NCBI GenBank assembly: GCA_041751875.1
Contig: JBGSIC010000013.1
Location: forward strand, 11,858 to 75,857
Length of the DNA: 64,000 nt
Reading direction: 5' to 3'
Source: Bdellovibrionota bacterium
Lineage (GTDB): Bacteria > Bdellovibrionota > FAC87 > UBA2466 > JACKAF01
Part shown: one piece after another, positions 4,398-58,324 of the stretch
Numbering within the stretch: position 1 is the first letter of the stretch
Layout: every line of letters starts with the position of its first letter
Translations under genes and position numbers: made by a program
Notes under the pieces: model-generated
What the model saw: the letters and a program-made list of their open reading frames with translations, nothing else
Told to the model about the DNA's origin: nothing
The model's database searches: none

Positions 4398-4692
4398 AGT
4401 TCTCGCTCCTGGAGACGCGCGCGTAGGGCCCATTTGTGACACCGCTCGTCTGTAACCATACTGTACAAGCTATACCCGCAAAAATAAAGGCGTTGTAGGC
4501 AGCCCGATTGCACTCAAAAGGAGTACAGCAAAATGGTCGCCTTCAGAATACGCGCGAGTCTTCAAACTTCGTGAGAGAACCGAAAGTGTATTCCGTGGCA
4601 CAGGGCTTGCTTTATTCGACCATGGAGTGAGGGCACAGTGTTTTGTTGTTGCGCCCCGGCCTCACAAAAAGCGCATTGCGGAGTGGATACCG

Positions 4693-19951: not shown

Positions 19952-20393
19952 CTAAAATAACAACGAAACTAATTCGGCGGTCCCCCGCGCACGGCGGAGA
20001 CCCTACCTGTCACTGATCGTGAAAAATCGCGTGAAACTTAAACCCCGCAGCAAAATTGTAGGCTTTGTGTTTTCAAGGACTTACCTCTCCCTTGATTGGC
20101 TCCTCTCCTTCATCACCGCATCTCAGGCTGAATAGGCACGGCGCTGACAGGCTGAACCAACAAATTGTGCGAAACTCTCCTCATTTCCAGCATTTGGCGC
20201 CTTCTCGGGGTTGCTAAAATAAGGAGTGTCGGGGATTTGGGCAGGCTTAGTATTTGAGAGGATTAGGGGATCCCAATCGTGAAAAAACGTACGGCCAAAC
20301 TTTAGCCAACTATCCAAGACATTTACGACTGTGTAATCGCGGCACACTCCTTGCTGATCAATGGGGTGAGATCCTTTTCTTATTGGAGTACGT

Positions 20394-33290: not shown

Positions 33291-34289
33291 ATGCTCTTAA
33301 GCCCAGGTTTTAATCTTACGCTTCGCCCGATGAAGTATCCGGTCTTCTACGAAATGTATAAGAACGGTATCAAGAACACGTGGACCGTAGAAGAAGTCGA
33401 TTTCTCTCGCGACCTGGATCATCTGCAAAATCGCATGACTCCGGCGGAGAAACATTTGGTTAACCGCTTGGTTGCGTTTTTTGCCACCGGTGACTCCATT
33501 GTCGGCAACAACCTGGTCCTAAACCTTTACAAGCACATAAATTCACCGGAGGCGCGTTTGTATCTGTCGCGCCAGCTATTTGAAGAAGCACTCCATGTTC
33601 AGTTTTACCTGACGCTTCTGGATACCTACCTTCCTGACGTGGAACAACGCCAAGAAGCTTTCCGAGCAATCGAGACAATCCCTTCGATCAAGAAGAAAGC
33701 AGAATTTTGCTTTAAATGGATCGACTCCATCAACAAGTTGGAGCGTTTGGAGAGTGAAGGACACCGTCGCCAGTTCCTTCTCAACCTGATTTGTTTTGCT
33801 ACATGTATCGAAGGCCTCTTTTTCTTTGCCGCCTTTGCCTATGTTTACTTTTTGCGCTCCAAGGGCCTGCTCGACGGACTTGCGGCGGGTACCAACTGGG
33901 TTTTCCGAGATGAAAGCGCGCACATGACTTTTGCTTTCAAGGCCATTGAAATCGCGCGCCGAGAAGAGCCCGGCTTGTTTGATCAGCAGATGAAAAATTC
34001 CATCATTCAGATGATGGATGAAGCGATTGAGTGTGAGCTTGCGTTTGCTACTGACGTTCTTGAACACGGGGTCGCAGGACTGTCCATCAACGACATGCGA
34101 CAGTATCTGGAGTTTGTGGCCGATCAGCGCTTAGCGAGCCTGGAGATGCCCCCGCACTTCAACGCGAAGAATCCGTTCGAGTTTATGGCACTGCAAGATG
34201 TGCAGGAACTCGCCAACTTCTTTGAGCGACGCGTCTCTGCTTACCAGACCGGCATCACCGGTCGAGTGGCCTTCGACGAAGAATTCTAA
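33291..34289 (+). CDS. nrdB: Ribonucleoside-diphosphate reductase beta subunit
   Basis: Di-iron ligand motifs (EEALHVQFY and FFAAFAYVYF with the tyrosyl radical site). C-terminal FDEEF tail. Lies directly downstream of nrdA. Confidence 0.85.
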   Translation: MLLSPGFNLTLRPMKYPVFYEMYKNGIKNTWTVEEVDFSRDLDHLQNRMTPAEKHLVNRLVAFFATGDSIVGNNLVLNLYKHINSPEARLYLSRQLFEEALHVQFYLTLLDTYLPDVEQRQEAFRAIETIPSIKKKAEFCFKWIDSINKLERLESEGHRRQFLLNLICFATCIEGLFFFAAFAYVYFLRSKGLLDGLAAGTNWVFRDESAHMTFAFKAIEIARREEPGLFDQQMKNSIIQMMDEAIECELAFATDVLEHGVAGLSINDMRQYLEFVADQRLASLEMPPHFNAKNPFEFMALQDVQELANFFERRVSAYQTGITGRVAFDEEF

Positions 34290-34415
34290 GAGAGATTGCT
34301 TCGTCGCCGCTGGCTCCTCGCAATGACAGGCGCCACTTCCCCCAATGATAGACGTGACAAGGGCGAAGCAACTAGTGATTGCCCCGCCCCGTCTTACGTA
34401 CGCGCCCCCAAAAAG

Positions 34416-35222
34416 TTACAAACTCGCCTGAAGGGTCAGCTGTCCGACCCCTTTGCCCAAACCATCTGCCTTAAGAAGGTCATCGCTGTAGAAAGCGACC
34501 CCGACAGTAAGTTTAGGAGTCACCGCGTACAGCAACTCAGGGTAGGTCCACACCAGTAAACTCCAAGCATCGTTATTTTTAGCTCCGGCCTGGTAGTTCA
34601 AATGGCGAGTTTGGTGAAAAAACAAAGGCAAGGACAACGAGAGCTTATCCGTCAGGCTAATGTCCACAATTGCGTAGACACGGTTTTCGAAAACCGGATT
34701 GGCGGAAGCGTCTGTGCCCGATCCACTTCCCGTACGACTATAAGCGTGAAAAATGGGGATAATTGATCCCGTTACCGTTACAACAGAGGAAACTTTTTTC
34801 GATAGTGTGAAATAGTTTCGAACCGTCGTGATCATGCCCGCGTCTCGGCGCGCCTTGAAGGTAGGTGTAAAAACACGAGGCGCGTAAGTGAACGTGAGAC
34901 TCTCATCCGCGCTTTTCCAGATAGGAGCAAATCTCGCTCGAAAAAACCCGTCGAAGGCATAGAGATCCAACCCGGTGCCATCGCCCCGATGACGCGCAAT
35001 ATTTGTGTTGAAAGCCTGCAAGTAACTTACGTTGATATCTTCCGTAAGATTGATCCCGAGCTCAACCGAGTTCTCCGTATGGAAAGAATCGGCTCCGGAG
35101 GCCGCCATCGAGGGCCGCATGTCCAGCGCTCCCGACACGGTTCCAGGCGTCGCCGCCACTAGCCCCGCACTAAAAAGTCCCAACAACAACGACGAGAAAA
35201 TCCACAAGCTTCTGTTGCTCAT
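34416..35222 (-). CDS. Hypothetical outer-membrane protein
   Basis: Signal peptide MSNRSLWIFSSLLLGLFSAGLVAA (internal Met chosen). Beta-strand-like pattern ending in a C-terminal aromatic residue. Confidence 0.45.
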   Translation of the reverse strand: MSNRSLWIFSSLLLGLFSAGLVAATPGTVSGALDMRPSMAASGADSFHTENSVELGINLTEDINVSYLQAFNTNIARHRGDGTGLDLYAFDGFFRARFAPIWKSADESLTFTYAPRVFTPTFKARRDAGMITTVRNYFTLSKKVSSVVTVTGSIIPIFHAYSRTGSGSGTDASANPVFENRVYAIVDISLTDKLSLSLPLFFHQTRHLNYQAGAKNNDAWSLLVWTYPELLYAVTPKLTVGVAFYSDDLLKADGLGKGVGQLTLQASL

Positions 35223-35398
35223 AAATGGCCCCCTAAACTCTTTTCGAGTTCCCAAGTTTTAGTATAAACCCCCGTACTTCGGCATTCCGATTCCTCTATT
35301 AGCAAGACCCTTGCCATTCTTCCGTAGCCTGGACTGAGCGCGCTTTCTCCCAACCGGTATCTTTTTGACCCTGGTTTACCGAGCATTCTTTTCAAAAA

Positions 35399-35438
35399 GG
35401 TGCCAGGTCACTTTTCCGCCGAAAAGTGCACAGGCACC
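35399..35438. repeat. Imperfect palindromic element, copy 1 (GGTGCCAGGTCACTTTTCCG|CCGAAAAGTGCACAGGCACC)
   Basis: Self-complementary 40-mer. Its reverse complement recurs at 35779..35825. Confidence 0.5.
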
Positions 35439-35452
35439 TTTTTTCAAAGCAC

Positions 35453-35469
35453 CTGGCACCTTTTTGGCT
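35453..35469 (+). promoter_or_regulatory. Candidate sigma-54 -24/-12 promoter (CTGGCACC-TTTT-TGGCT)
   Basis: TGGCAC at 35454-35459 with GC exactly 12 nt downstream of the GG (35455 to 35467). One mismatch to the TTGC -12 consensus. Oriented toward the downstream Cys-rich/histone ORF. Confidence 0.3.
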
Positions 35470-35596
35470 CAGGGCCCCGGCACCTGGGGACTTCTTGGCA
35501 CTAGCGCGTCGCAGAACTAGGCTCGAAAAGTTTTGAGAGAGTTGGCACCCGACTTGCTTAAGCAATGGGTGAGAGGGAAGACGATGAGTAAGACAT

Positions 35597-36190
35597 TTGA
35601 AAAAGGTAACCAAACGTTCCTTAAACGAGTTTCTTGCCGCAAAGTTTTTCACAATGCCATTCGGATCGAGGAACCGATCCTGCTCCTGTCATAAATCTTC
35701 GAATCGCCGCCAAGCAAACTTTCCTGGGGGACCCGAATCCGGTCCCCCTTTCCTCTTGTGCCAGGCATTTTTTCGGAAGGTGCCTGTGCACTTTCCGGAC
35801 GAAGTACGGAAAGTGACCTGGCACCTCAGCGCATTATTGTGTAATCTAGCCCCGGTGGAAATCTGGAAAAAGTGCAGCACTTGTAAGAACCCTATCGCAT
35901 GTGGCGCGAAGTACTGGGCGTGTAATGTTTCGACCTGCAACACCCAGAAGATGGCCTTGGCATTCTGTACGGTGGAATGTTGGGACGCCCATATTCCCGT
36001 GCTGAACCATCGTAGTGCGTGGTCACTCGAAAAGACCGCGCCGCGCACACCGGGCGAACCGGCTTCCAAACCAGTTGCGCCCAAACCGAAACAGCAACCA
36101 CAAGCCTTTTCGGTACCACAAGTAAAAGTGCGCCCCGCTAGCAACGCGACTTTGCCTTCGGCCCCCAAAACATTTTCAGGAGCAAATACT
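35597..36190 (+). CDS. Upstream in-frame ORF: Cys-rich (zinc-ribbon-like) segment plus Lys/Pro/Ala-rich linker. It may be an N-terminal extension of the histone-fold protein, a separate gene, or non-coding.
   Basis: Open frame continuous with the histone ORF. Contains KCSTCKNPIACGAKYWACNVSTC...CTVECWDAH and then PASKPVAPKPKQQPQ. No convincing in-frame ATG/RBS; GTG at 35854 is possible. The 5' part overlaps the palindromic repeats. Confidence 0.3.
35779..35825. repeat. Imperfect palindromic element, copy 2 (inverted relative to copy 1)
   Basis: GGTGCCTGTGCACTTTCCGG...CGGAAAGTGACCTGGCACC. Shares the GTGACCTGGCACC and GGTGCCTGTGCAC arms with copy 1 in opposite order. Confidence 0.5.
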
Positions 36191-36382
36191 ATGAGTGAAT
36201 CATCAGACGATATTTTGATCATCGCCTCGCGCTTGAAGGCTTATATCCGCGACAAATCAGAAATGAACACCTCCGCTGACACGCTAGAAGCGCTCTCGCA
36301 GATGGTGCGACGAGCAGCAGACCAAGCCATTGAAAAAGCCAAACAAGCCGGCCGTAAAACCGTCATGGCCCGAGACTTTTAA
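36191..36382 (+). CDS. Bacterial histone-fold protein (Bdellovibrio Bd0055-like)
   Basis: 63 aa. DDILIIASRLKAYIRDKSEMNTSADTLEALSQMVRRAADQAIEKAKQAGRKTVMARDF matches the MNTSA...GRKTVMARD signature of the B. bacteriovorus histone Bd0055, as recalled from the literature. A strong AGGAG RBS lies 9 nt upstream of the ATG at 36191. Confidence 0.7.
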   Translation: MSESSDDILIIASRLKAYIRDKSEMNTSADTLEALSQMVRRAADQAIEKAKQAGRKTVMARDF

Positions 36383-37194
36383 TGAAATCTCAAGAAGGCA
36401 AGGTTGTCCTCATTACGGGCGCCTCTTCCGGCATCGGGCGGGCGGTCGCGGAAGCCTATCACCAGCTTGGCGCCTCAGTGGTATTGGTGGCGAGGCGTAA
36501 AGAACGCCTCGAAACACTCGCTGCTGACCTTTCCGCCCAAGGTGCTCCGGTATTAGCTTTAACGGGCGATGTCACCAGCGAAGAAAGTATGCGTTCGGTT
36601 GCTGAAGCCGCTCTCAAACGGTTCGGGCGACTCGATGTGCTTTTCGCTAACGCGGGATTTGGTGTAGTCGGAAACGTGGATAAGCTTAGTACCGCCGACT
36701 TTCAGCTTCAATTCGACACCAACGTATTTGGCGTCTTGCGCTCAATCTACGCCTTTCTTCCTGCGCTTAAGGAAAGTCGCGGGAGCATCGCCGTCACAGG
36801 AAGTGTGATGGGCTTTATTTCTCTGCCTGGCGGAGCACCGTACTCCATGAGTAAATTTGCCGTGCGAGCGCTTTGCGATTCTCTTTATGCAGAGCTGCGA
36901 CCCTTGGGCGTATCGGTCACCCACATCGCTCCGGGCTTTGTTGCTTCAGAAATCCGCAGTGTAAACAACCAAGGCGCGCAGGTGGAAAACTTCAAAGAAC
37001 CTGTCCCCGCTTGGCTTCTCATGCCCACCGACAAAGCGGCTCGGCAAATTGTCAGCGCTATTATTCACCGGAAACGCGAACAGGTGGTCACGGCACACGG
37101 AAAAGCCACGGTGTTTTTGCAAAAACATTTTTCCGCGTTGATTGCTTTTTTGGTCAGCCGATTTGGCGTGAAACACCGTACGCAAGCCAACTAA
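36382..37194 (+). CDS. Short-chain dehydrogenase/reductase (SDR) family oxidoreductase
   Basis: TGASSGIGRAVA Rossmann motif and catalytic YSMSK. The start overlaps the histone stop (TAATG). Confidence 0.8.
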   Translation: MKSQEGKVVLITGASSGIGRAVAEAYHQLGASVVLVARRKERLETLAADLSAQGAPVLALTGDVTSEESMRSVAEAALKRFGRLDVLFANAGFGVVGNVDKLSTADFQLQFDTNVFGVLRSIYAFLPALKESRGSIAVTGSVMGFISLPGGAPYSMSKFAVRALCDSLYAELRPLGVSVTHIAPGFVASEIRSVNNQGAQVENFKEPVPAWLLMPTDKAARQIVSAIIHRKREQVVTAHGKATVFLQKHFSALIAFLVSRFGVKHRTQAN

Positions 37195-38012
37195 AGCTGC
37201 GAAGAAAGTCCACTCGACGGGCGTGCGATAGGCAAAAGAATGTCCACGAAGAAGGTTCCCAAGGTCATCTTCTCAAAAAGTTCTGGCGCCGTGTATTTCT
37301 GCGCTTCTAGCACCTGAAACAAAATGGCCTTCCCCAACTGCTTGTCGATCGCCTCGAGCGCTTCGGGATCACCTGAAAGAGCGCGCTGCACTTCTTGCTC
37401 GGTTACATCCTGACCGGAGGCTACCAAAATCGGCCAGATACCCCCAATCGAGTCGTCTTTCAAACGTTGGCGTAAAACGGCGCCGAGTAAATGTAAGTCT
37501 TCCTCAAGTGCTGGAGTAAATCTTCCGGATTCATCGAGATAGCTCACGAGGCGATTATTTTGAACTGTTTGATAATTCGTGAGGTGCTTTTGGTCATACT
37601 CAACCGAATCCACGACTCGCACCCCTCCGTTAGGGAAGTAGTGTCCCGAACGCGAACGCACCAAACCGTTCCCAACGACGAGCGCGATGATTGCCATCGA
37701 GCAGGGAACAATAAGACGCTTCCTCCTCTTGTTCGCCCTGTATTCTTCGTCTTTCAATCGCTTGCGTTCGTCCCTGTCGGAATGCACTTCTCCCAAGGTC
37801 TCTTTAATGAGCTCTCGTAAGGACAGGTGATCGGTCTCTGCTGGGGTGTCGGGCCCAGGGGTAGGCGTCGCCGGTTCGAGAGGCGTTTCCGCACGTACGG
37901 ATGCGGCTAGAAGGCAGAAACACAGGGTGACGCAAAGGCTGATTCGCCCGAGCCTTTGAATCGCAAACTTTTGAGATAATCCCATCTCCCTTGCGTATCC
38001 GGTTGAAGGCAT
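37191..38012 (-). CDS. Hypothetical secreted protein
   Basis: A signal peptide is present. The sequence is charged and Lys/Arg/Glu-rich. No motif. Confidence 0.4.
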   Translation of the reverse strand: MPSTGYAREMGLSQKFAIQRLGRISLCVTLCFCLLAASVRAETPLEPATPTPGPDTPAETDHLSLRELIKETLGEVHSDRDERKRLKDEEYRANKRRKRLIVPCSMAIIALVVGNGLVRSRSGHYFPNGGVRVVDSVEYDQKHLTNYQTVQNNRLVSYLDESGRFTPALEEDLHLLGAVLRQRLKDDSIGGIWPILVASGQDVTEQEVQRALSGDPEALEAIDKQLGKAILFQVLEAQKYTAPELFEKMTLGTFFVDILLPIARPSSGLSSQL

Positions 38013-50311: not shown

Positions 50312-50497
50312 TCTTCTCTCTGGCGTCTGTTAAGTGAAAGGGTTAACGCGCCAGACAATAGTGAAAAAGCGGATCGGAAGCAACCCTTTGCGTGGATTCT
50401 GTGACACTTCGTGCTAGGTGCCAGTCGACTTTTGGTACTTCGTCCCAAAAGGGTCGACAGGCACCCTAGCATCAACATGGTAAAATAGAGGTCTACC

Positions 50498-51556
50498 ATG
50501 AGCCATCCTTCAAGATGGTCGGGCTTAGACGGCGCTAAATTTCTCTGCATTTTGTTCATGGTCTTTATCCACGCCACCTTCTGGTTGGTGACGGACCAGG
50601 ACGAAGTCATGAATACACGCTCGTTTCTTTATCCGATCATAAATCACACCACGTTTCTGGGCCTCTTTCCCTTAAGCCTACCGATCACGGCGGGCTGTGG
50701 TCTGCGTTTCTACTTAGAAAAAATTCGCACACACACCGATTGGGAGAGTTTTCGTCTCCTGCCTCTCCTTAAGATCTCAATTGGCATTATGCTGTTGGGC
50801 TATGTGATGACGCTACTCACGTGGGGTGGTGGCCACGCCTTTGAGTGGGACGTGTTGCACTTTGTTGGTTTGAGTTACTTGGTCATCGCGCTAGCTCTGA
50901 AGGTGACGACGGTCCCGGTATTCGCCGTACTCGGTTTCTTCAGTTTTCTCCTCACCGATATTGTGCGACAGCTTGTTGGTGCCAATCCCGGCTTCCTGGG
51001 TGCCGTACTGGTAGGCGACCAATCGGGAGACTTTTTCTGGCCGTTCTTTCCTTGGTTCTCCACCGTGGTCTTTGGTTTTGTACTCGCTCATTGTTACATA
51101 CGTTTCGGCAAATCAAGCCGCTTTCAGTGGGGCTTAGGGCTTATCGCTTTACTGGGACTCGGGTTTGCGTACACCAACCAAGACTTAGCGCTGGTGTTGG
51201 ATCCACAATTTGTCTGGGGCCCGGGCGTGTTTCAGCCACCTCTGGGTTTTATCGTCGGCCTCATGGGGTTCTTCTCACTCCTGCTTCTTATCTTCGATGG
51301 GCTTAATGCATACTGGCCTCCTTCTCCCAACGGCGTCGTGCGTTCCTTCAGCCAAGGAATTCTGTGGATTTACCTCGCGCACATCATTGTGGGAGCCAGA
51401 CTGGCCCAACTTTATGTGAAATGGATTCCACTCTCTCTTTGGACTGTACTTCTCTTTGCTTTCCTCATGATTCTTTTCTCTTGGTTTGTCGGCAGGCTAA
51501 GTGTCCGCCTTGCGGAGAAACAACTTCGAATCACTTTGGTAAAGGTGAAAAATTGA
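50498..51556 (+). CDS. Integral membrane protein, acyltransferase-3 (OatA/NolL-like) family; tentative
   Basis: RWSGLDGAKFLCILFMVFIHA resembles the R-x-x-LD-x-x-R/K...H N-terminal motif of acyltransferase-3 membrane proteins. About 10 transmembrane segments. Confidence 0.4.
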   Translation: MSHPSRWSGLDGAKFLCILFMVFIHATFWLVTDQDEVMNTRSFLYPIINHTTFLGLFPLSLPITAGCGLRFYLEKIRTHTDWESFRLLPLLKISIGIMLLGYVMTLLTWGGGHAFEWDVLHFVGLSYLVIALALKVTTVPVFAVLGFFSFLLTDIVRQLVGANPGFLGAVLVGDQSGDFFWPFFPWFSTVVFGFVLAHCYIRFGKSSRFQWGLGLIALLGLGFAYTNQDLALVLDPQFVWGPGVFQPPLGFIVGLMGFFSLLLLIFDGLNAYWPPSPNGVVRSFSQGILWIYLAHIIVGARLAQLYVKWIPLSLWTVLLFAFLMILFSWFVGRLSVRLAEKQLRITLVKVKN

Positions 51557-53673
51557 GCGATTCCAGACGCCCCTCACCGCAGCCGGCTACGCCCCCTCGT
51601 CCGGCACCTTCCTACAAAAACGATGACGTATGCATCGTGGGAGTGGGTTGCGTGCTACCTGAGGCGTCGGATACTCAGGCCTTCTGGAACAATCTGTTGC
51701 AAGCCCGTTGCTCAATCGCTCCCATGCCTTCCACCCGTTGGGACGCAAATCTTTACGTGTCGCCTGATCCCAAAGCGGAAGACATGACTTACTCATCCAA
51801 AGCAGCATTCGTTCGAGATGAGCAAATGGAAACGATTACTAAAAAAAGAAAATGGAGCGGCCGTGGCTACAATCGCCTCCAAGCGATGACCCTCGAGGCG
51901 TCACTACAAGCACTAGAGAACATAAGTGCCGAGGACCGATCCAAAAACCTTTGCGGCGTTTTCCTCGGTTGTATGGGAGCGGATGAAGAACTTTCGGTGC
52001 AAAAGCTACTGGAAGAAGAGCAAAGCGTGCTTTCTTACCTTGAACAAGAAGCCGGTCCCCACCTGGAAGACTTGCGTTCCGCAACAGCTCAAACATTTCA
52101 GCACCTGCGCAAGAACCGAACCTCGCGGAAAGAAGCTGTCCTAGCGACTTCCGTTTTGGCGACGGTAAAAAAGGAACTGGGGCTAAGGGGCGAAGCGTGC
52201 CTGGTAGATGCGGCTTGCGCCTCTTCCCTCGCTGCGCTGGATCTAGCGATTGGCCACTTACGCGCAGGAAACTGTCATATCGCCCTGGCGGGGGGCATCG
52301 AAGGACAGCTGGCCCCTGAAAACTTTGTGGTCTTTAGCCAAGTGGGCCTACTGGCGCAAGACCTTCCCCACCCTTTAGACGAAAGTGCCGACGGTCTTTG
52401 CCAAGGCGAAGGTGCCGTGGTGTTTGCTTTGCAACGCCTTTCGGACGCGCGCGCAGAGGGCCGCAAGATCCTGGGTGTCCTTCGCGCTTCGGGTGGCTCA
52501 AGTAACGGCAAAGCATCTAGTCTCTTTTCCCCCACCGTAAATGGACAGACGACTGCTATCTCCCGTTCACGCCAGAAATCCAGCTCCGCGCTATTCGACT
52601 ACATCGAGTGCCACGGCACGGGAACTCGCACAGGGGATCGTACTGAACTTCGTGCCCTGAATGAAATGCAAAAAGGAGCAAAAGAAAAAACGCCTGTAGG
52701 ATCCGTAAAGGCTCTCATCGGACACACCAAAGGCGCCGCAGGCGCAGCCGGCCTTTTAAAGTGCTTGTTGAGCCTACAAAACAAAACGGTTCCCCCGTCA
52801 CCTTATTTCACGCGATTCGCGGAATCCGATAGCCTCTCCCAACTTACGGTGAACACACAGCCCCTATCGCTTGCCGACAGACCTAGTCCCCTTTGCCTTG
52901 GCGTAAGCTCCGCGGGGTTTGGCGGCGCCAACTACCATATGCTTTTGGAGGAATACCTACCGCAAGCTCCTGCGGTTTCCGGTTTACCTCTGCTCACCAC
53001 CCGGATCGCTTTAATCGCCCAAACTCAGGTTAATGATCCCCATGTCGCCGAGGCTTTGGCTTCCTACAAATTCAAACTGCCACCGAAGAACCTAGCGCAA
53101 ATCGATACGCTTCAATTGCAAGCCATCGTAGCGGTGGCCCACGCGCTGCGAGACTTTCATCTTCCTCTAAACAGTTTTGACCGTACAAAAGTATCGGTGT
53201 TTTCCTGCGGATGCACCGGCATCGAAGCTTCCTACCAATTTTCAAAACGCGTTCGACACAAAGAGTTTCATCGCTTCGCTTCCGGAGAAAAAGCAGCTGT
53301 CCTAGAAAAACACAAAGCAAAGTTTCCCGCAGTCACTGAAGACACGGGGCCCGGAATTTTGAACAACGTCATCGCCGGACGTGTCTGCAACGTTTTTGAT
53401 TTTATGGGAAAGAACTTTAATCTCGATGCCGACATGGCATCCCTAGGTTGCGCCTTCGAAATGGCGTCCATTGAACTACGTTCGCGAAGTAGCGATCTGG
53501 TGATTGTTTTACAGGCGGAAGAAACGTTTAACGAGAACGAATGCGAGATCTCGCGACAAGGCATCCGTTGCTACTTTCTTACGCTGTTGGATTCAGCGCG
53601 ACGCGACAACCGCACCATTTTAAGTTTGCTAAACGACGTTCACTACGAAGAAACATGGCCGGTCCAAGCCTAA
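51553..53673 (+). CDS. Polyketide/PUFA-synthase-type beta-ketoacyl synthase (KS) with a C-terminal degenerate KS-like remnant
   Basis: KS motifs are present: DVCIVGVGCVLPEASDTQAFW, DAACASSLAALDLAIGHLRAGN (active Cys), ECHGTGTRTGD and GHTKGAAGAAGL. The C-terminal NVIAGRVCNVFDFMGKNFNLDADMASLG...SSDLVIV resembles a second KS in which Cys is replaced by Met. The start (TTG 51553) is uncertain. Confidence 0.75.
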   Translation: MSDSRRPSPQPATPPRPAPSYKNDDVCIVGVGCVLPEASDTQAFWNNLLQARCSIAPMPSTRWDANLYVSPDPKAEDMTYSSKAAFVRDEQMETITKKRKWSGRGYNRLQAMTLEASLQALENISAEDRSKNLCGVFLGCMGADEELSVQKLLEEEQSVLSYLEQEAGPHLEDLRSATAQTFQHLRKNRTSRKEAVLATSVLATVKKELGLRGEACLVDAACASSLAALDLAIGHLRAGNCHIALAGGIEGQLAPENFVVFSQVGLLAQDLPHPLDESADGLCQGEGAVVFALQRLSDARAEGRKILGVLRASGGSSNGKASSLFSPTVNGQTTAISRSRQKSSSALFDYIECHGTGTRTGDRTELRALNEMQKGAKEKTPVGSVKALIGHTKGAAGAAGLLKCLLSLQNKTVPPSPYFTRFAESDSLSQLTVNTQPLSLADRPSPLCLGVSSAGFGGANYHMLLEEYLPQAPAVSGLPLLTTRIALIAQTQVNDPHVAEALASYKFKLPPKNLAQIDTLQLQAIVAVAHALRDFHLPLNSFDRTKVSVFSCGCTGIEASYQFSKRVRHKEFHRFASGEKAAVLEKHKAKFPAVTEDTGPGILNNVIAGRVCNVFDFMGKNFNLDADMASLGCAFEMASIELRSRSSDLVIVLQAEETFNENECEISRQGIRCYFLTLLDSARRDNRTILSLLNDVHYEETWPVQA

Positions 53674-56600
53674 AATCGTCCGCCCCGCTTTCCGCCAAAG
53701 GAATCTTTGGCGGCGGCTATCAGGTCGGATTCACGCCTTTCGCGGAACCGTTGCGCTCCTATTCCTCCGTGTGTTTTGTTTTTGCGGGCCAGGGAGCGAT
53801 TTACCCCGGCATGTTCGCCCACCTCTATCAACAGTTTGAAAGCGTACGCCAAGTTTTTGTAAAAGCGGATGCAGAGGCGACTCGCCTGGGCCTTCCTTCC
53901 GTGTCCGCTTTCGTGGTCAATCCGCAAAGTCTAACCGATACCCAGAAACACCAGGTACAAAACCTTTGCCTCTTTGCCGGTGAACTAGCCATCGCGGAGC
54001 TGCTACTTAACGCCAAGATTTATCCTAAGGCGCTTACGGCCCACAGTTTCGGCGAGTATGCAGCGCTGGTATGCGCGGGTATTGTGCCCTTCGAACAGAT
54101 GTTCGAACTCGTCGCGTTTCGCGAAGTACAATCACCGCCGAAAAACGAAAAAGGCTATCTGGTCGCGATTCACGCCGATGAAGCGTTTACCAAACAACTT
54201 CTAAAATCTTTTCCGTGCCCGATTTCTAACTTAAACAGCGCTTCCCAAACGGTTGTTGCCTGCCCCCCGGAGAAACTGAGCGCTTTGGATGAGTTTCTCA
54301 CTAAGGAAGGTGTGCGCCACAAGGTGCTGCCCACACCCCAACCCTATCACTCTTCCTTTTTGTCAGAGATGCCCCCCAAAATGCGCGCCTGGTTGGGAGC
54401 ACACAAACTCACGCTTCATTCGGCAACTCTTCCCGTTTTCTCATCGGTAACACATGCGTGGGTCGAGGAACCCTCGCGGGATGTTCCTTTTATCATCGAG
54501 AACCAAATGACCGAGCGAGTGGATTTCATCGATCAAATCCATTCGATTTCGCGATACGGTTGCGACCAGTTCATTGAAATTGGGCCGGCAATGGTACTCA
54601 CACCGTTAATTGAAACCATTACCGGTCTCCCTCGCCACCGTTTGGCCTTGGCCGACGATTACTTCGAAGACTACAAGAAACACGCGGCCGTCCGAGAAGA
54701 ACGACGTTCCCCCAACAGCAATAAGCTTTTAGAAAGTATCAACCGCATTATCAGCTCGGTGACGGGATACCGAATTGAAGACATTTCCGTGGAAGATAAG
54801 TTTCAAGAAGACTTGGGAATCGATTCCATCAAAAAAACGGAAATTGTTTTTTCGGTGTTTGATGAGGTCCGCAAGGAAGGTTTGACCGGCATTAACACCG
54901 CGGGAATTCACCAAGTAGGTGACCTGCTTCAGGTACTGGAGAACGCGCAGCAGAACCCCATCGTACCCGCGCACACTCAACCGGCAGCGTTTGCTAGATT
55001 TCAAAAAACGTGGACGGCTTGCGAACTTGTCGTTGATATTCCTTCCCCCCTTCCCACTCTCTACATCGACATTGATTTTTCGACTTCCCGTCCCCTGGAT
55101 CGGGCGACCTGGAGAAAGCTGCGCCGCCTGTCCAAAGAGGGCCGTTTCAACTGCGTCCTCATGTATCCACCATCGGCGATTGACTGGGATTTTTTGGCAC
55201 CCGACGCGCTTCGCAAAGTAATCGAAGGAAAAATTCTTCCACTGATGAAGGTAGTACAAAAGTTTATTCGTTCTCACCAAAGTGCCTTTGAAGGGACTCT
55301 CGCTCTGGTCAGCCAGGGAAAGAAAGATCCCCTGGCGCAAGGTTTCGCTGCTTTCCTCAAAAGTGTAAGGAAGGAGAATCCCAAAAGCTTTGTAAAGCAC
55401 GTCCACTTCGAAACACCTCTCCCGCCCGAAGCATTGGGTGCGCAACTTTTTAAAGAGCTCCAGGACGTCACCAGTCCGGAAGTCGTCTACCGCCGAGGAG
55501 AACGCTATCTCGCATCACTCGAAGCATTGGATGAAGAAGATGGGCTTCCCCACGACGGTCAACCGCGCGTGGTTATCGCCCTGGGGGGAGCGAAGGGAAT
55601 CACTCGCTCACTAGTGGAATCGCTCTCATCCCGTTTCCCGATTCGCCTCTACCTTCTGGGCCGCTCGCCGCAAGCCAGCATTCAATCCTCTCTGCAAAGC
55701 CTCGAGGGCAAGGTCAGCGACTTGAGCTACACAGTGTGTGATGCAACCGACTTCGCGAAGCTAGAACAGACCATTGGTCGCATCTTAGCAAGAGAGAGAA
55801 AGATCGATTTTATTCTCAACGGTGCAGGTATCGAAATCAGCCAGGGCCTGGGTCAGAAGACGGGCTTGGAAATGCGCAAAGAAATTTTTAACAAGGTGCT
55901 GCCCGCGTTCTATCTGACTTGTCTCTGCCGTTCGCTTCCTCAAACTAAGCTTATTCAATTCTCTTCGGTCGTTTCCGAGTTCGGAAACGCTGGGCAAACG
56001 GTTTACGCGTGGGCCAATCAGTTCATCAATACTCTCGGCGAAGTTTGCCAGGGCCAAACCCTTTCCATCGCCTGGCCGCCTTGGGACGGCGTCGGGATGA
56101 CGGCACCCCTAGCGATTCAACAAGGTCTCAAGCGTTTGGGTGTGGGTTTACTTACGCCCGAAAGTGCCGCTGAACTCTTTGAACAAGATCTGGGCCCCGC
56201 CCACGATCGATTGCGAACCGTTTATTACTACGATCCAGCCGACTACCCGGCGTATGGGCTCGCCTTGAGAAAGCTTGCACCGTACGCTCCTTTATTGGGA
56301 ACGCCCCTACTCGTAGGGGGAAAGGCCGCATTCAGTCGATTGTATGCACCGTCCTCCGATCCTTTTCTCCAAGATCACCGAGTAGGCGGACGCGCTTACC
56401 TGCCCGGAGCAGTCGGTGCCGCTCTCTTGCTGGGCCTTGGGCGCGCTTCGCTTGGTTACTACCCTCGTCTGGAAAGCTTGAAGTTCACTCAACCGATTAT
56501 TTTTCCGGAAAAGAAAACGGCCCTGACCAGCGTTTACAACCCCCGTACGCATACCGGCGAGGTGGGGTTGGGTTCACCCGCCTTTATCGCCCATTTCCGC

Positions 56601-57071
56601 TCGCCTCGAAGAGCGCCATCCGTTTTGCGACTCCCCGCGGAAACCAGCCCCCTTCCCACTGAAAATTTTTACGGGCCGCAAGGGATGTTTCATGGCCCGA
56701 GCTTTCAGCTCGTCGATAAAGCGTGGAAGCACGGAACGCATCATGTAAGAGTGCTGCTCAAACACGGATTAGCTCCCATTTTGGATAATGGTTTGGGTGG
56801 CAAACTCTCCCAGTGGATTGACGGGGCCTTTCAGTCCCTCGCCCTCTTCCCCCTAACAGAAGAGAAAGCTCTTTTCCTTCCCGTGGAAGTAGGTGAACTC
56901 GAAGTTTTCTTGGCCTCCTCGCCTCTGGAGGCTCACTGGATCTATGTAGAACGCACGGGGCAAAGTTCTTCTCATGTGGAGGGCAGCGCTCAGGTTCTTA
57001 ACGAAAAGCTGGAGTGCCTCGTCTCTCTCACGGGCGTTCAGTGTCAGCTTGCGATGCCGTCAAAAACCTAA
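53655..57071 (+). CDS. PfaA-like multidomain PKS protein: acyltransferase - acyl carrier protein - ketoreductase - dehydratase
   Basis: AT: FVFAGQGAIYPGM and AHSFGEYAA (GHSxG). ACP: DLGIDSIKKTEI. KR: VVIALGGAKGITRSL Rossmann motif and SSVVSEFGNAGQTVYAWANQ. DH: HRVGGRAYLPGA (HxxxGxxxxP) and DGAFQS. The ATG at 53655 overlaps the KS stop by 19 nt. Confidence 0.8.
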   Translation: MAGPSLKSSAPLSAKGIFGGGYQVGFTPFAEPLRSYSSVCFVFAGQGAIYPGMFAHLYQQFESVRQVFVKADAEATRLGLPSVSAFVVNPQSLTDTQKHQVQNLCLFAGELAIAELLLNAKIYPKALTAHSFGEYAALVCAGIVPFEQMFELVAFREVQSPPKNEKGYLVAIHADEAFTKQLLKSFPCPISNLNSASQTVVACPPEKLSALDEFLTKEGVRHKVLPTPQPYHSSFLSEMPPKMRAWLGAHKLTLHSATLPVFSSVTHAWVEEPSRDVPFIIENQMTERVDFIDQIHSISRYGCDQFIEIGPAMVLTPLIETITGLPRHRLALADDYFEDYKKHAAVREERRSPNSNKLLESINRIISSVTGYRIEDISVEDKFQEDLGIDSIKKTEIVFSVFDEVRKEGLTGINTAGIHQVGDLLQVLENAQQNPIVPAHTQPAAFARFQKTWTACELVVDIPSPLPTLYIDIDFSTSRPLDRATWRKLRRLSKEGRFNCVLMYPPSAIDWDFLAPDALRKVIEGKILPLMKVVQKFIRSHQSAFEGTLALVSQGKKDPLAQGFAAFLKSVRKENPKSFVKHVHFETPLPPEALGAQLFKELQDVTSPEVVYRRGERYLASLEALDEEDGLPHDGQPRVVIALGGAKGITRSLVESLSSRFPIRLYLLGRSPQASIQSSLQSLEGKVSDLSYTVCDATDFAKLEQTIGRILARERKIDFILNGAGIEISQGLGQKTGLEMRKEIFNKVLPAFYLTCLCRSLPQTKLIQFSSVVSEFGNAGQTVYAWANQFINTLGEVCQGQTLSIAWPPWDGVGMTAPLAIQQGLKRLGVGLLTPESAAELFEQDLGPAHDRLRTVYYYDPADYPAYGLALRKLAPYAPLLGTPLLVGGKAAFSRLYAPSSDPFLQDHRVGGRAYLPGAVGAALLLGLGRASLGYYPRLESLKFTQPIIFPEKKTALTSVYNPRTHTGEVGLGSPAFIAHFRSPRRAPSVLRLPAETSPLPTENFYGPQGMFHGPSFQLVDKAWKHGTHHVRVLLKHGLAPILDNGLGGKLSQWIDGAFQSLALFPLTEEKALFLPVEVGELEVFLASSPLEAHWIYVERTGQSSSHVEGSAQVLNEKLECLVSLTGVQCQLAMPSKT

Positions 57072-57088
57072 AAAGGAAAGGAGCTCAC

Positions 57089-58135
57089 TTGGCTGGTCAA
57101 AAGCAGTTACGAGTCTTAGTACTCGCTCACCAAGAATTGCTCCCCCCAGAAGGCGCACTCACTCATCAGTCCAAGGGCGCCGACTGGAAGACCGAGTTTG
57201 ATGTTCTAAAAGCACTCAAAGCGCTGGGCTACGAGGTTCGCATTCTTGGGTTGGAAAATGACCTAGGGCCCGTTCGCGGAGCAATTTACGAATTTCAGCC
57301 AAACCTGGTTTTCAATTTGATGGAAGATTTTCACAACGTGCCGATCTTTGACGGCAATATTGTGAGCTATCTCGAGCTCCTCAAAATTCCCTACACCGGT
57401 TGCAATCCGCGTGGCCTGATGATGGCGAAAGACAAGGGCATCAGTAAAAAAATATTTCACTACCACGGAATTCGTACGCCCGATTTTGCGATATTTCCGC
57501 GCAACCAACGCGTTAGGGTTCCCAAGGAACTCAAGTACCCTCTCATCGTAAAATCACTGACCGAAGAAGCTTCTTTTGGTATCTCCCAGTCATCAATTGT
57601 TTACGACGAGCAGAAACTGCGAGAGCGCATTCAGTTTGTCCATGAGAATACAATCACCGATGCGCTTGTGGAGTCCTACATTTCAGGCCGCGAGCTTTAT
57701 GTCGGCATGATCGGCAATCAGCGCACGGAAGTCTTCCCGATTTGGGAACTTCTGTTCCGCAAGCCCACGGATCAAATTGAACGCATCGCCTCACGACGCG
57801 CTAAGTGGAGCCCTAGCTATCGAAAGAAATATGGCATTACTTCGGGTTTGGCTCGCTCGCTTTCCGACGCCCAGCGTGGGGAACTCGAAGCAACTTGCAA
57901 GCTTGCCTACCGTGCTCTCGGCTTGAATGGTTATGCGCGACTCGACTTCCGTTTGGCGCAAGACGGCACACCTTTTCTCCTCGAGGTAAACCCCAACCCA
58001 CATCTTGGAAACGGCGAGGACTTCGCTGAATCAGCTTCCAGAAAGGGTTTGCGGTACACTGATCTCATCCAAAAAATTGTTAGCCTGGGACTTAGCTGGC
58101 AGCCAGAAGGCCCGTCCGTTTGGGTCTCCGCTTAA
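57089..58135 (+). CDS. ATP-grasp ligase, D-alanine--D-alanine ligase-like
   Basis: YPLIVKSLTEEASFGIS (ATP-grasp K-loop) and ARLDFRLAQDGTPFLLEVNPNPHL (Mg-binding E-x-N). TTG start at 57089 with a GGAAAGGAG RBS. Confidence 0.7.
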   Translation: MAGQKQLRVLVLAHQELLPPEGALTHQSKGADWKTEFDVLKALKALGYEVRILGLENDLGPVRGAIYEFQPNLVFNLMEDFHNVPIFDGNIVSYLELLKIPYTGCNPRGLMMAKDKGISKKIFHYHGIRTPDFAIFPRNQRVRVPKELKYPLIVKSLTEEASFGISQSSIVYDEQKLRERIQFVHENTITDALVESYISGRELYVGMIGNQRTEVFPIWELLFRKPTDQIERIASRRAKWSPSYRKKYGITSGLARSLSDAQRGELEATCKLAYRALGLNGYARLDFRLAQDGTPFLLEVNPNPHLGNGEDFAESASRKGLRYTDLIQKIVSLGLSWQPEGPSVWVSA

Positions 58136-58141
58136 AAGGTG

Positions 58142-58211
58142 CCCATCTACTTCCCGGCCGGAAAGGTCGCGGGTGATTACCTGGCACTTTTACGGCCGGG
58201 AAGTAGGTGGG
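58142..58211. repeat. Long inverted repeat (19-bp arms) enclosing an ACCTGGCAC-containing loop
   Basis: CCCATCTACTTCCCGGCCG ... CGGCCGGGAAGTAGGTGGG (1 mismatch). A 32-nt loop contains TTACCTGGCACTTTTAC. Located between the ATP-grasp gene and the next lipoprotein gene. Confidence 0.45.
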
Positions 58212-58324
58212 TTCCCTCGCAGGGGGAGTAGGCACCTTTTCTGCGAGCTAGTCATCCGAGAATTTTTCTTGTAGTCTTTAAAGCCATCGACTTTCAATAG
58301 GGCAAATTTCATCAGGAGAGAGAC

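Follow-up and report, generated by a model that had tools for sequence, protein, structure and literature searches.

The window (the whole stretch of DNA that was analysed, 64 kb in length) contains a gene for a ZZ-type zinc finger fused to a histone fold. This type of protein belongs to the "ZZ histone" family described in PMC11390915. We found 466 full-length homologues of the ZZ histone, in which the C4 and C2H2 residues are invariant. The upstream neighbour is a divergent OMP-like gene with a signal peptide. Going from the OMP-like gene to the ZZ-histone gene, the spacer between them contains a sigma-54 promoter directed towards the OMP-like gene, a central block, a first palindrome (E1), a group of upstream motifs, a sigma-54 promoter directed towards the ZZ-histone gene, a predicted small RNA (sRNA) with two hairpins (H1 and H2) and a second palindrome (E2). 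Coordinates are collected in Table 1, together with those of two relatives of the palindromes found elsewhere in the window (E3 and E4).

The loci of the nearest homologues (L014/L015, L016/L017, L098 and L099-L101) were fetched for comparison. They are distant relatives of the locus studied here, their ZZ histones being 47-58% identical to that of the window. Synteny is kept in L014 (NrdA-NrdB-...-OMP-like(-)-spacer-ZZ histone-SDR), and the OMP-like(-)-spacer-ZZ histone-SDR portion of this order is kept in L098, which is a short contig. The OMP-like genes are orthologous (50% identity, E=3e-87).

Table 1. Features of the spacer between the OMP-like and ZZ-histone genes, and relatives of the palindromes in the rest of the window
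Feature	Position	Strand	Description
OMP-like gene with signal peptide	34416..35222	-	upstream divergent neighbour
Second sigma-54 promoter	35316-35301	-	TGGCAAGGGTCTTGCT, 1 mismatch; upstream of OMP-like gene
Central block	35354..35369		CCGGTATCTTTTTGAC, conserved, between the divergent promoters; counterparts CCGGTGTCCTTTTGTC in L014 and GCGGTGTCGTTTTGTC in L098
E1	35399..35438	+	REP-like imperfect palindrome, GGTGCCAGGTCACTTTTCCG then CCGAAAAGTGCACAGGCACC
Extra right-arm half-site of E1	35446..35469	+	AAAGCACCTGGCACCTTTTTGG, ~22 nt from right arm
Upstream GGCACC...TGGCACT motifs	35479..35502	+	align with TGGCACC-N14/15-GGTGCR-N4-TGGCACT in L014, L098, L016 and L099
Perfect sigma-54 -24/-12 promoter	35543..35558	+	TGGCACCCGACTTGCT, conserved in all orthologous units
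Predicted sigma-54-dependent sRNA	35569..35757	+	~190 nt; start inferred from the -12 element; C/U-rich tail
36-aa ORF inside the RNA	35584..35694	+	no Pfam match
Hairpin H1	35663-35680	+	GGAUCG-AGGMAC-CGRUCC
Hairpin H2	35726-35748	+	GGGGGACY-loop-RGUCCCCC
Extra half-site of E2	35758..35774	-	GTGCCAGGCATTTTTTC, mirror of the E1 extra half-site
E2	35779..35825	-	E1-type REP-like element in opposite orientation, GGTGCCTGTGCACTTTCCGG..CGGAAAGTGACCTGGCACC
ZZ histone gene (ZZ-type zinc finger + histone fold fusion)	35855..36382	+	downstream neighbour
E4	50417..50465	+	third clean copy; CM R2 52.6 bits, E=1.9e-12
E3	58136..58240	+	composite relative; termini AAAAGGTGCC...GGCACCTTTT, internal ACCTGGCAC half-site

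The structure of the two palindromes was analyzed. A first-pass annotation of this DNA had described E1 and E2 as self-complementary elements, each nearly the reverse complement of the other. Their letters and positions were confirmed, as were both properties. Each element is an inverted repeat of hairpin type with 83% complementarity between its arms, and the outer 17 nt are 100% complementary between E1 and E2; beyond these 17 nt the arms of the two elements are only about 80% alike. E1 is made of an A-type arm (GGTGCCAGGTCAC..), a loop and a B-type arm (..GTGCACAGGCACC), and E2 is E1 reversed, the left A-type and right B-type arms of E1 being swapped. As E1 and E2 have their internal mismatches in common, they were more probably copied from a single template than selected independently for pairing. 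The similarity is far above chance: with <=3 mismatches allowed, the 20-mer arm is matched 2 times versus 0.00 expected, and the 9-mer ACCTGGCAC occurs 5 times versus 0.26 expected. The inverted similarity also extends inwards (35414-35459 versus 35758-35803) by one extra half-site per side (35446-35466 and 35758-35774), about 22 nt inside each element, a feature absent from the first-pass annotation, and E1 together with its extra half-site forms a "1.5-palindrome". E1 is bordered by an A-run and a T-run (35393-35444). The 8-mer TTTTCAAA is present in direct orientation on both flanks of E1, and of E1 only; it may be a target duplication. Both elements fold strongly, with energies of -28 to -31 kcal/mol for E1 on either strand and about -28 kcal/mol for the E2 hairpin, and with z-scores of -3.8 to -6.6 when folded as RNA and -5 to -7 as DNA.

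Relatives of E1 and E2 in the window were searched for with a half-site scan and with a covariance model built from members of the palindrome family (CM R2). The model recognizes E1 (58.8 bits, E=3.5e-14) and E2 (66.2 bits, minus strand, E=3e-16), and with E4 it finds three copies at E<=2e-12. E4 occupies an unrelated intergenic site 15 kb off, between two unrelated divergent genes. Its loop, TACTTCGT, is the reverse complement of the E2 loop, its termini are also identical to those of E2, and its stem shows compensatory base differences relative to E2. An A·A mismatch at stem position 7 is common to E4 and E2, and the same mismatch is carried by E1. The scan of the window for sigma-54 sites gave no match near E4. 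The composite relative E3 starts 1 nt past the stop codon of gene 57014..58135, a placement which fits that of an intrinsic terminator. It folds at -76 kcal/mol (z=-8.1), and CM R2 matches it marginally (58132-58194, E=0.19). The ACCTGGCAC motif that had been reported inside the inverted repeat at 58142..58211 is indeed present, at 58179. Three of the four window copies (E1, E2 and E4) lie in 5' or promoter-side spacers and not at 3' ends. The copy number of the family is based on these 3-4 copies in 64 kb and on the copies in other genomes.

The distribution of the palindrome in other genomes was examined with a strict pattern. The collection comprised 596 Gb, with each species represented by a single genome, and did not include the source genome of the window. 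The pattern identified 12 loci in it, of which Bdellovibrionota MAGs account for 8. A near-identical palindrome of 51 bp recurs in the MAG of Bdellovibrionaceae SI075_bin85, with 12 CM hits in the 38 kb fetched. These copies occur in both orientations, as judged from the asymmetric loop, and the conservation of their surroundings is limited to A-runs and T-runs. Several copies in other genomes are located 2-4 nt past stop codons, one of these copies lying between convergent genes. The "1.5-palindrome" arrangement, in which a palindrome is accompanied by a duplicated arm, is also found in SI075_bin85, at L009:6959/6983 and L013:153/177. The family consensus can be written GGTGCCAG-stem-loop-stem-C(A/T)GGCACC, and it is often bordered by an A-run at one end and by a T-run at the opposite end. 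Double compensatory changes affect 8 of the 19 stem pairs across the family, and the fold z-scores of the hairpin copies range from -5 to -8. The GTAG and CGTC tags are absent from the family, the ends of which (GGTGCC/GGCACC) are fully paired. A search for transposases beside the copies, which took in the ORFs of the repeat-dense locus L009, gave neither a RAYT nor any other. The literature on Bdellovibrio REP/RAYT elements or sigma-54 sRNAs yielded nothing relevant, and the palindrome family is apparently undescribed and uncatalogued.

Sigma-54 sites of the locus were then considered. The sigma-54-like site flagged by the first-pass annotation (TGGCACCTTTTTGGCT, 35454-35469) does have the GG/GC spacing claimed for it, with 1 mismatch to TGGCAC-N5-TTGCW. 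As a promoter it is not conserved in the orthologues, and it falls in the extra half-site of E1 and the T-run that follows, i.e. it is part of the repeat. The wider proposal of a sigma-54 control region stands for the region and not for the site that was named: judged by agreement with TGGCAC-N5-TTGCW, spacing, direction and conservation, two other sites are sigma-54 promoters, namely 35543-35558 (plus strand) and 35316-35301 (minus strand). Both had been overlooked, as had E4. Perfect sigma-54 sites number 2 in the window versus 0.13 expected, and the plus-strand promoter is one of them; its counterparts are TGGCACTTCCCTTGCT in L014, TGGCACCGACCTTGCT in L016, TGGCACCACACTTGCT in L098 and TGGCACTCCCCTTGCT in L099. 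In the alignment of the loci, perfect sites of L014 (TGGCACAAAGCTTGCT) and L098 (TGGCACATGCCTTGCT) correspond to the minus-strand site, and this promoter is kept in the loci having an OMP-like neighbour. The conserved motifs upstream of the plus-strand promoter correspond in the window to 35479-35484 and 35496-35502, and they are candidate sites for an enhancer-binding protein. An RpoN box or a GAFTGA motif was searched for in the six frames of the window, and Pfam was run on the large ORFs; neither search gave an RpoN or an activator.

Of the 37 TGGCAC hexamers of the window, 6 are within 35400-35824, and GGCACC/TGGCAC motifs are enriched 24-fold at the locus. The right arm of E2 has a GG-N9-GC spacing, so that the sigma-54 spacing (GG-N10-GC) is not reached. 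The TGGCAC found in the palindrome ends is most likely part of the repeat consensus and not a working -24 box.

The plus-strand promoter precedes the predicted sRNA, and promoter and RNA form a unit that occurs once in the window. Hairpins H1 and H2 are kept in the orthologues with wobble and compensatory changes. A covariance model of the 3' domain of the RNA (CM R1) matches only the window, L014/15, L016/17, L098 and L099/101; applied to about 90 more distant ZZ-histone loci, it gave no matches. A scan of positions 34000-37500 against Rfam 15 at E<=1 returned only chance-level matches (E 0.15 and 0.63). The RNA is a candidate for an undescribed sigma-54-dependent sRNA, which on the evidence of the model matches is restricted to a small Bdellovibrionota clade. 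As a separate observation, a different sigma-54-driven C-rich RNA was seen at two distant ZZ-histone loci, L018 and L055.

The coding content of the predicted ~190-nt sRNA is variable. The 36-aa ORF of the window is probably not the conserved feature. A different ORF, 64 aa long and preceded by a strong SD, is present in L014 and L098. The frame used in the window lacks a start codon in L016, and a possible ORF common to L016 and L099 is read in another frame. This inconsistency of the ORFs inside the transcript indicates conservation at the nucleotide or RNA level. The possibility that the conserved GGATCGAGG block encodes a protein was considered and rejected: the candidate ORFs of the window, L014 and L098 do not use the frame of those of L016 and L099, the start codon is missing in L016 as said above, and conservation extends to every codon position. 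In L099/L101, upstream motifs, promoter and RNA together have the opposite orientation with respect to the ZZ-histone gene, and they therefore make up a self-contained transcription unit. The segment bracketed by the palindromes had been called a histone-locus leader, a designation that we abandon for this reason.

The palindromes themselves are not part of the conserved organization of the locus. No E1/E2-type GGTGCC...GGCACC palindrome was found in L014, L016, L098 and L099, nor in 80 further ZZ-histone loci from metagenomes; the ZZ-histone loci without it number about 91. Despite this absence, L014, L098, L016 and L099 keep the plus-strand promoter and the RNA. E1 separates the central block from the upstream motifs, at a place occupied by unrelated sequence in the orthologues, and E2 is located between hairpin H2 and the start codon of the ZZ-histone gene; the two positions can be seen as spacers tolerant of insertion. 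The first-pass annotation had listed a REP-like element among its possible readings and had itself proposed dispersal as the test. Copies do exist elsewhere in the 64 kb (E4 and the composite E3) and in other Bdellovibrionota genomes, with none at the orthologous loci, and the REP-like reading is the one that we retain.

We consider that E1 and E2 are dispersed REP-like hairpin repeats flanking an older sigma-54 sRNA gene, with a probability of about 0.75. The following scenario is proposed. A REP-like repeat would have spread through the intergenic DNA of this genome and of some related Bdellovibrionota genomes, and two copies would have landed, or been duplicated, in permissive spacers around an older conserved unit. 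In the older unit, the promoter at 35543-35558 and the TGGCACC/TGGCACT motifs would drive a structured sRNA of about 190 nt, the unit being placed between a presumed sigma-54-dependent OMP-like gene and the ZZ-histone gene. The transcriptional logic of the locus would then reside in the two conserved sigma-54 promoters with their own upstream motifs, to which an activator ATPase presumably binds. Where a copy adjoins the end of a gene, as at 58136-58240, it probably works as an RNA hairpin, either a terminator or a 3' stabiliser. E1 is probably functionally neutral at this locus, and the contribution of E2 would at most be a stable hairpin separating the sRNA from the start of the ZZ histone.

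Three other explanations were weighed against this one. E1, perhaps with E2, could be a UAS or operator where a dimeric enhancer-binding protein, bound to GGTGCC/GGCACC half-sites, controls both divergent promoters. The distance from the centre of E1 to the -24 element (~125 bp for the plus-strand promoter, ~102 bp for the minus-strand one) is compatible with such a role, as are the local enrichment in GGCACC/TGGCAC and the conservation of a related TGGCACC..GGTGC..TGGCACT upstream of the promoter in the orthologues; the half-sites also resemble the GCACC/GGTGC of NtrC. However, the orthologous units all lack E1 and E2 and yet keep their own upstream motifs. When a dyad conserved with the promoter is looked for 80-150 bp upstream, E1 has the right distance but not the conservation, which is found at 35479-35502 instead. 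Moreover, E2 is downstream of the RNA with no correctly spaced sigma-54 site after it (GG-N9-GC), E4 and the foreign copies are not beside sigma-54 promoters and often follow stop codons, and arms of 20 nt exceed the typical site of an activator dimer. The dual operator of the first-pass annotation was given up on the absence of E1 and E2 from the orthologous units and of a sigma-54 match near E4, and we hold control of both promoters through E1 to be unlikely. E1 may nevertheless have been co-opted as a binding site, as its GGCACC ends resemble the conserved upstream motif and its distance is typical of an enhancer.

The palindromes could also have evolved locally as intrinsic terminators or insulators isolating the sRNA unit, E1 and E2 being alike merely as G+C-rich hairpins. 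The AAAAA and TTTTTT flanking E1, its stability on either strand and the position of family members after stop codons elsewhere would agree with this. On the other hand, E1, placed between divergent promoters, has no obvious transcript to end, and E2 has no U-tract on either strand and was not called by a terminator scan. At a distance of 15 kb, E4 has the asymmetric arms, the loop and the A·A mismatch as well, a likeness indicative of common descent and not of convergence. We therefore see local evolution as quite improbable. A last explanation makes E1 and E2 the arms of an invertible cassette, which would flip the sigma-54 promoter and the sRNA towards either the ZZ-histone or the OMP-like gene as a phase switch; if true, two copies of a genomic repeat would have turned a conserved sRNA gene into a switch. 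It finds some appeal in the fact that inverted repeats of ~40-68 bp bracket a promoter-bearing segment of 340 bp, and that the homologous unit is oppositely oriented to the ZZ histone in L099/L101 versus L016. But the arms come from a dispersed family and, past the outer 17 nt, agree only to about 80%, no recombinase was seen in the vicinity, L099 is without flanking inverted repeats, and the sole other contig of the organism (Logan, 1.8 kb), which starts in the E2 loop, is colinear with the window. This contig came from a look-up of the SDR; the OMP-like protein and the 36-aa ORF, looked up in turn, gave no match. An inversion is, to our judgement, very improbable.

The palindromes are in themselves of little import: they add a tagless REP-like family common to several Bdellovibrionota genomes. 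They also carry a warning, since the TGGCAC at their ends can pass for a sigma-54 -24 box. A more useful outcome is the divergent pair of sigma-54 promoters with an undescribed structured sRNA beside a ZZ-histone gene. It gives a testable handle on sigma-54 regulation and sRNAs in a phylum whose bacterial histones are under active study, any functional relation of the sRNA to the histone gene being putative.

Several known systems can be compared with the locus. Invertons of the fimS/hin type likewise have inverted repeats around a promoter segment of a few hundred bp between two genes; here no adjacent recombinase was noticed, and the repeats are imperfect and come from a dispersed family. 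With bidirectional intrinsic terminators, E1 and many family members elsewhere share the succession of A-run, G+C-rich stem and T-run. They differ from them in forming a family conserved in sequence, in the lack of U-tracts in E2 and E4 and in the position of E1, E2 and E4 in promoter-side spacers. A MITE-like insertion, which the first-pass annotation had also considered, does not correspond to what is found: the element is not repeated as a whole, and its interior is single-copy, ancestral at the locus and present without the repeats in relatives.

Sigma-54-dependent sRNAs with upstream activator sites include Qrr (LuxO), GlmY-GlmZ (GlrR), CrcZ (CbrB) and Pxr of Myxococcus. The unit described here resembles them by its canonical -24/-12 element, by repeated conserved motifs located 50-100 bp upstream and, as far as sequence prediction goes, by a short structured non-coding transcript with a 3' stem-loop. 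In contrast to them, it has no match in Rfam 15, belongs to a small Bdellovibrionota clade only, and has some members with a small ORF.

A close parallel for the palindromes is with REP and REPIN elements, the extragenic palindromes of Proteobacteria that RAYT (IS200-like Y1) transposases mobilise. Classical REP superfamilies are defined by GTAG/CGTC tags (PMC3733652). The family of the window differs from them by having no such unpaired tag, by longer stems (~18-20 bp), and by the frequent A-run and T-run flanks. No RAYT was found near its copies, and its mobility is putative. Compared with a REPIN, E1 and E2 do not form a doublet: they are 340 bp apart with a conserved sRNA gene between them, and this arrangement is single in the window. 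Other features are shared with REP elements. The palindromes are short, imperfect and intergenic, and are found at multiple unrelated sites, in both orientations and, by extrapolation from the copies seen, in many copies per genome; compensatory changes preserve their stems; some copies are grouped as dimers or clusters; many copies are just past stop codons; and the distribution among related genomes is patchy, down to the absence of the palindrome from the sites orthologous to E1 and E2.

The spacer upstream of the ZZ-histone gene, which encodes a fusion of a ZZ zinc finger and a histone fold, contains a candidate new small RNA (sRNA) dependent on sigma-54. Two conserved and covarying hairpins (H1, H2) and a C/U-rich tail characterize this RNA, for which comparison with Rfam gave no family match. 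Its distribution is limited to a small clade of Bdellovibrionota, where a ZZ-histone gene adjoins it in every case, in either orientation. In one relative the entire unit and its upstream motifs are flipped relative to the gene (L099:2653-2950 compared with L016:5640-5931). An AT-rich palindrome (TTAATCTTGAGGTTAACC...) adjoins the L099 unit.

The 5' segment AGAGGGAAG of the sRNA (35572-35580) is able to pair with the 3' segment CUUUCCUCU (35749-35757), directly past H2, and this helix is present in the minimum free energy (MFE) structure. Similar GGAGG/CCUCC pairs are found at two related loci, L014 and L016. The helix is predicted to be either a closing helix of Shine-Dalgarno/anti-Shine-Dalgarno type or a seed region. 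At ZZ-histone loci further removed from this one there is another type of RNA-like unit, likewise driven by a sigma-54 promoter; it is rich in C and carries a strong terminator, and its start lies 174 nt upstream of the gene.

Features in the window and at related loci (window coordinates unless a locus is named)
Feature	Coordinates	Strand	Remarks
Candidate sRNA with promoter	35543-35757		RNA ~190 nt
Intergenic sigma-54-type promoters (3)	4596-4611, 20340-20355, 35543-35558		2 perfect, 1 near-perfect
Sigma-54 promoter of OMP-like gene	35301-35316	-	gene 34416-35222 (-)
Different RNA-like unit, sigma-54 promoter	L018:2827-2960, L055:118-250		~100 nt; distant ZZ-histone loci
E4, third clean palindrome copy	50417-50465		spacer of divergent genes
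E3, composite hairpin with family termini	58136-58240		starts 1 nt past stop codon
Two long ORFs	51364-57071		769 and 1176 aa; after E4's neighbour gene
Palindromes with tandem arm duplicate	L009:284-357, L009:6923-6997, L013:117-191		MAG SI075_bin85

The OMP-like gene has its own conserved sigma-54 promoter, perfect in the orthologues at L014 and L098, so that two sigma-54 promoters, divergent and separated by about 226 bp, share the spacer. A similar motif, ATGG(G/A)GTGAG, lies ~10 nt downstream of each of the three intergenic promoters; it may be a common 5' leader element or a chance occurrence. Within the ZZ-histone ORF (35855-36382), a strong internal Shine-Dalgarno sequence (AGGAG) precedes ATG 36192, and one public gene call predicts the 63-aa histone part alone; on these sequence grounds the gene might give rise to a short histone isoform as well as to the fusion.

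E1, one of the two REP-like palindromes bracketing the sRNA unit, is flanked on either side by the direct 8-mer TTTTCAAA (35389-35396 and 35441-35448), which may be a target-site duplication left by insertion. Around E4 the pairing extends into TGCTA/TAGCA flanks, and no sigma-54 site was found nearby. In the first of the two long ORFs beyond it, the N-terminal sequence (DDVCIVGVGCVLPEA...) resembles that of a ketosynthase, suggestive of a polyketide or fatty-acid synthase cluster. The very stable E3 hairpin (-76 kcal/mol, z=-8) has the appearance of a member of the palindrome family that encloses a second palindrome. In MAG SI075_bin85, one palindrome arm and its flank are often duplicated in tandem with a period of 23-24 nt, a pattern hinting at the way these elements could grow or insert.
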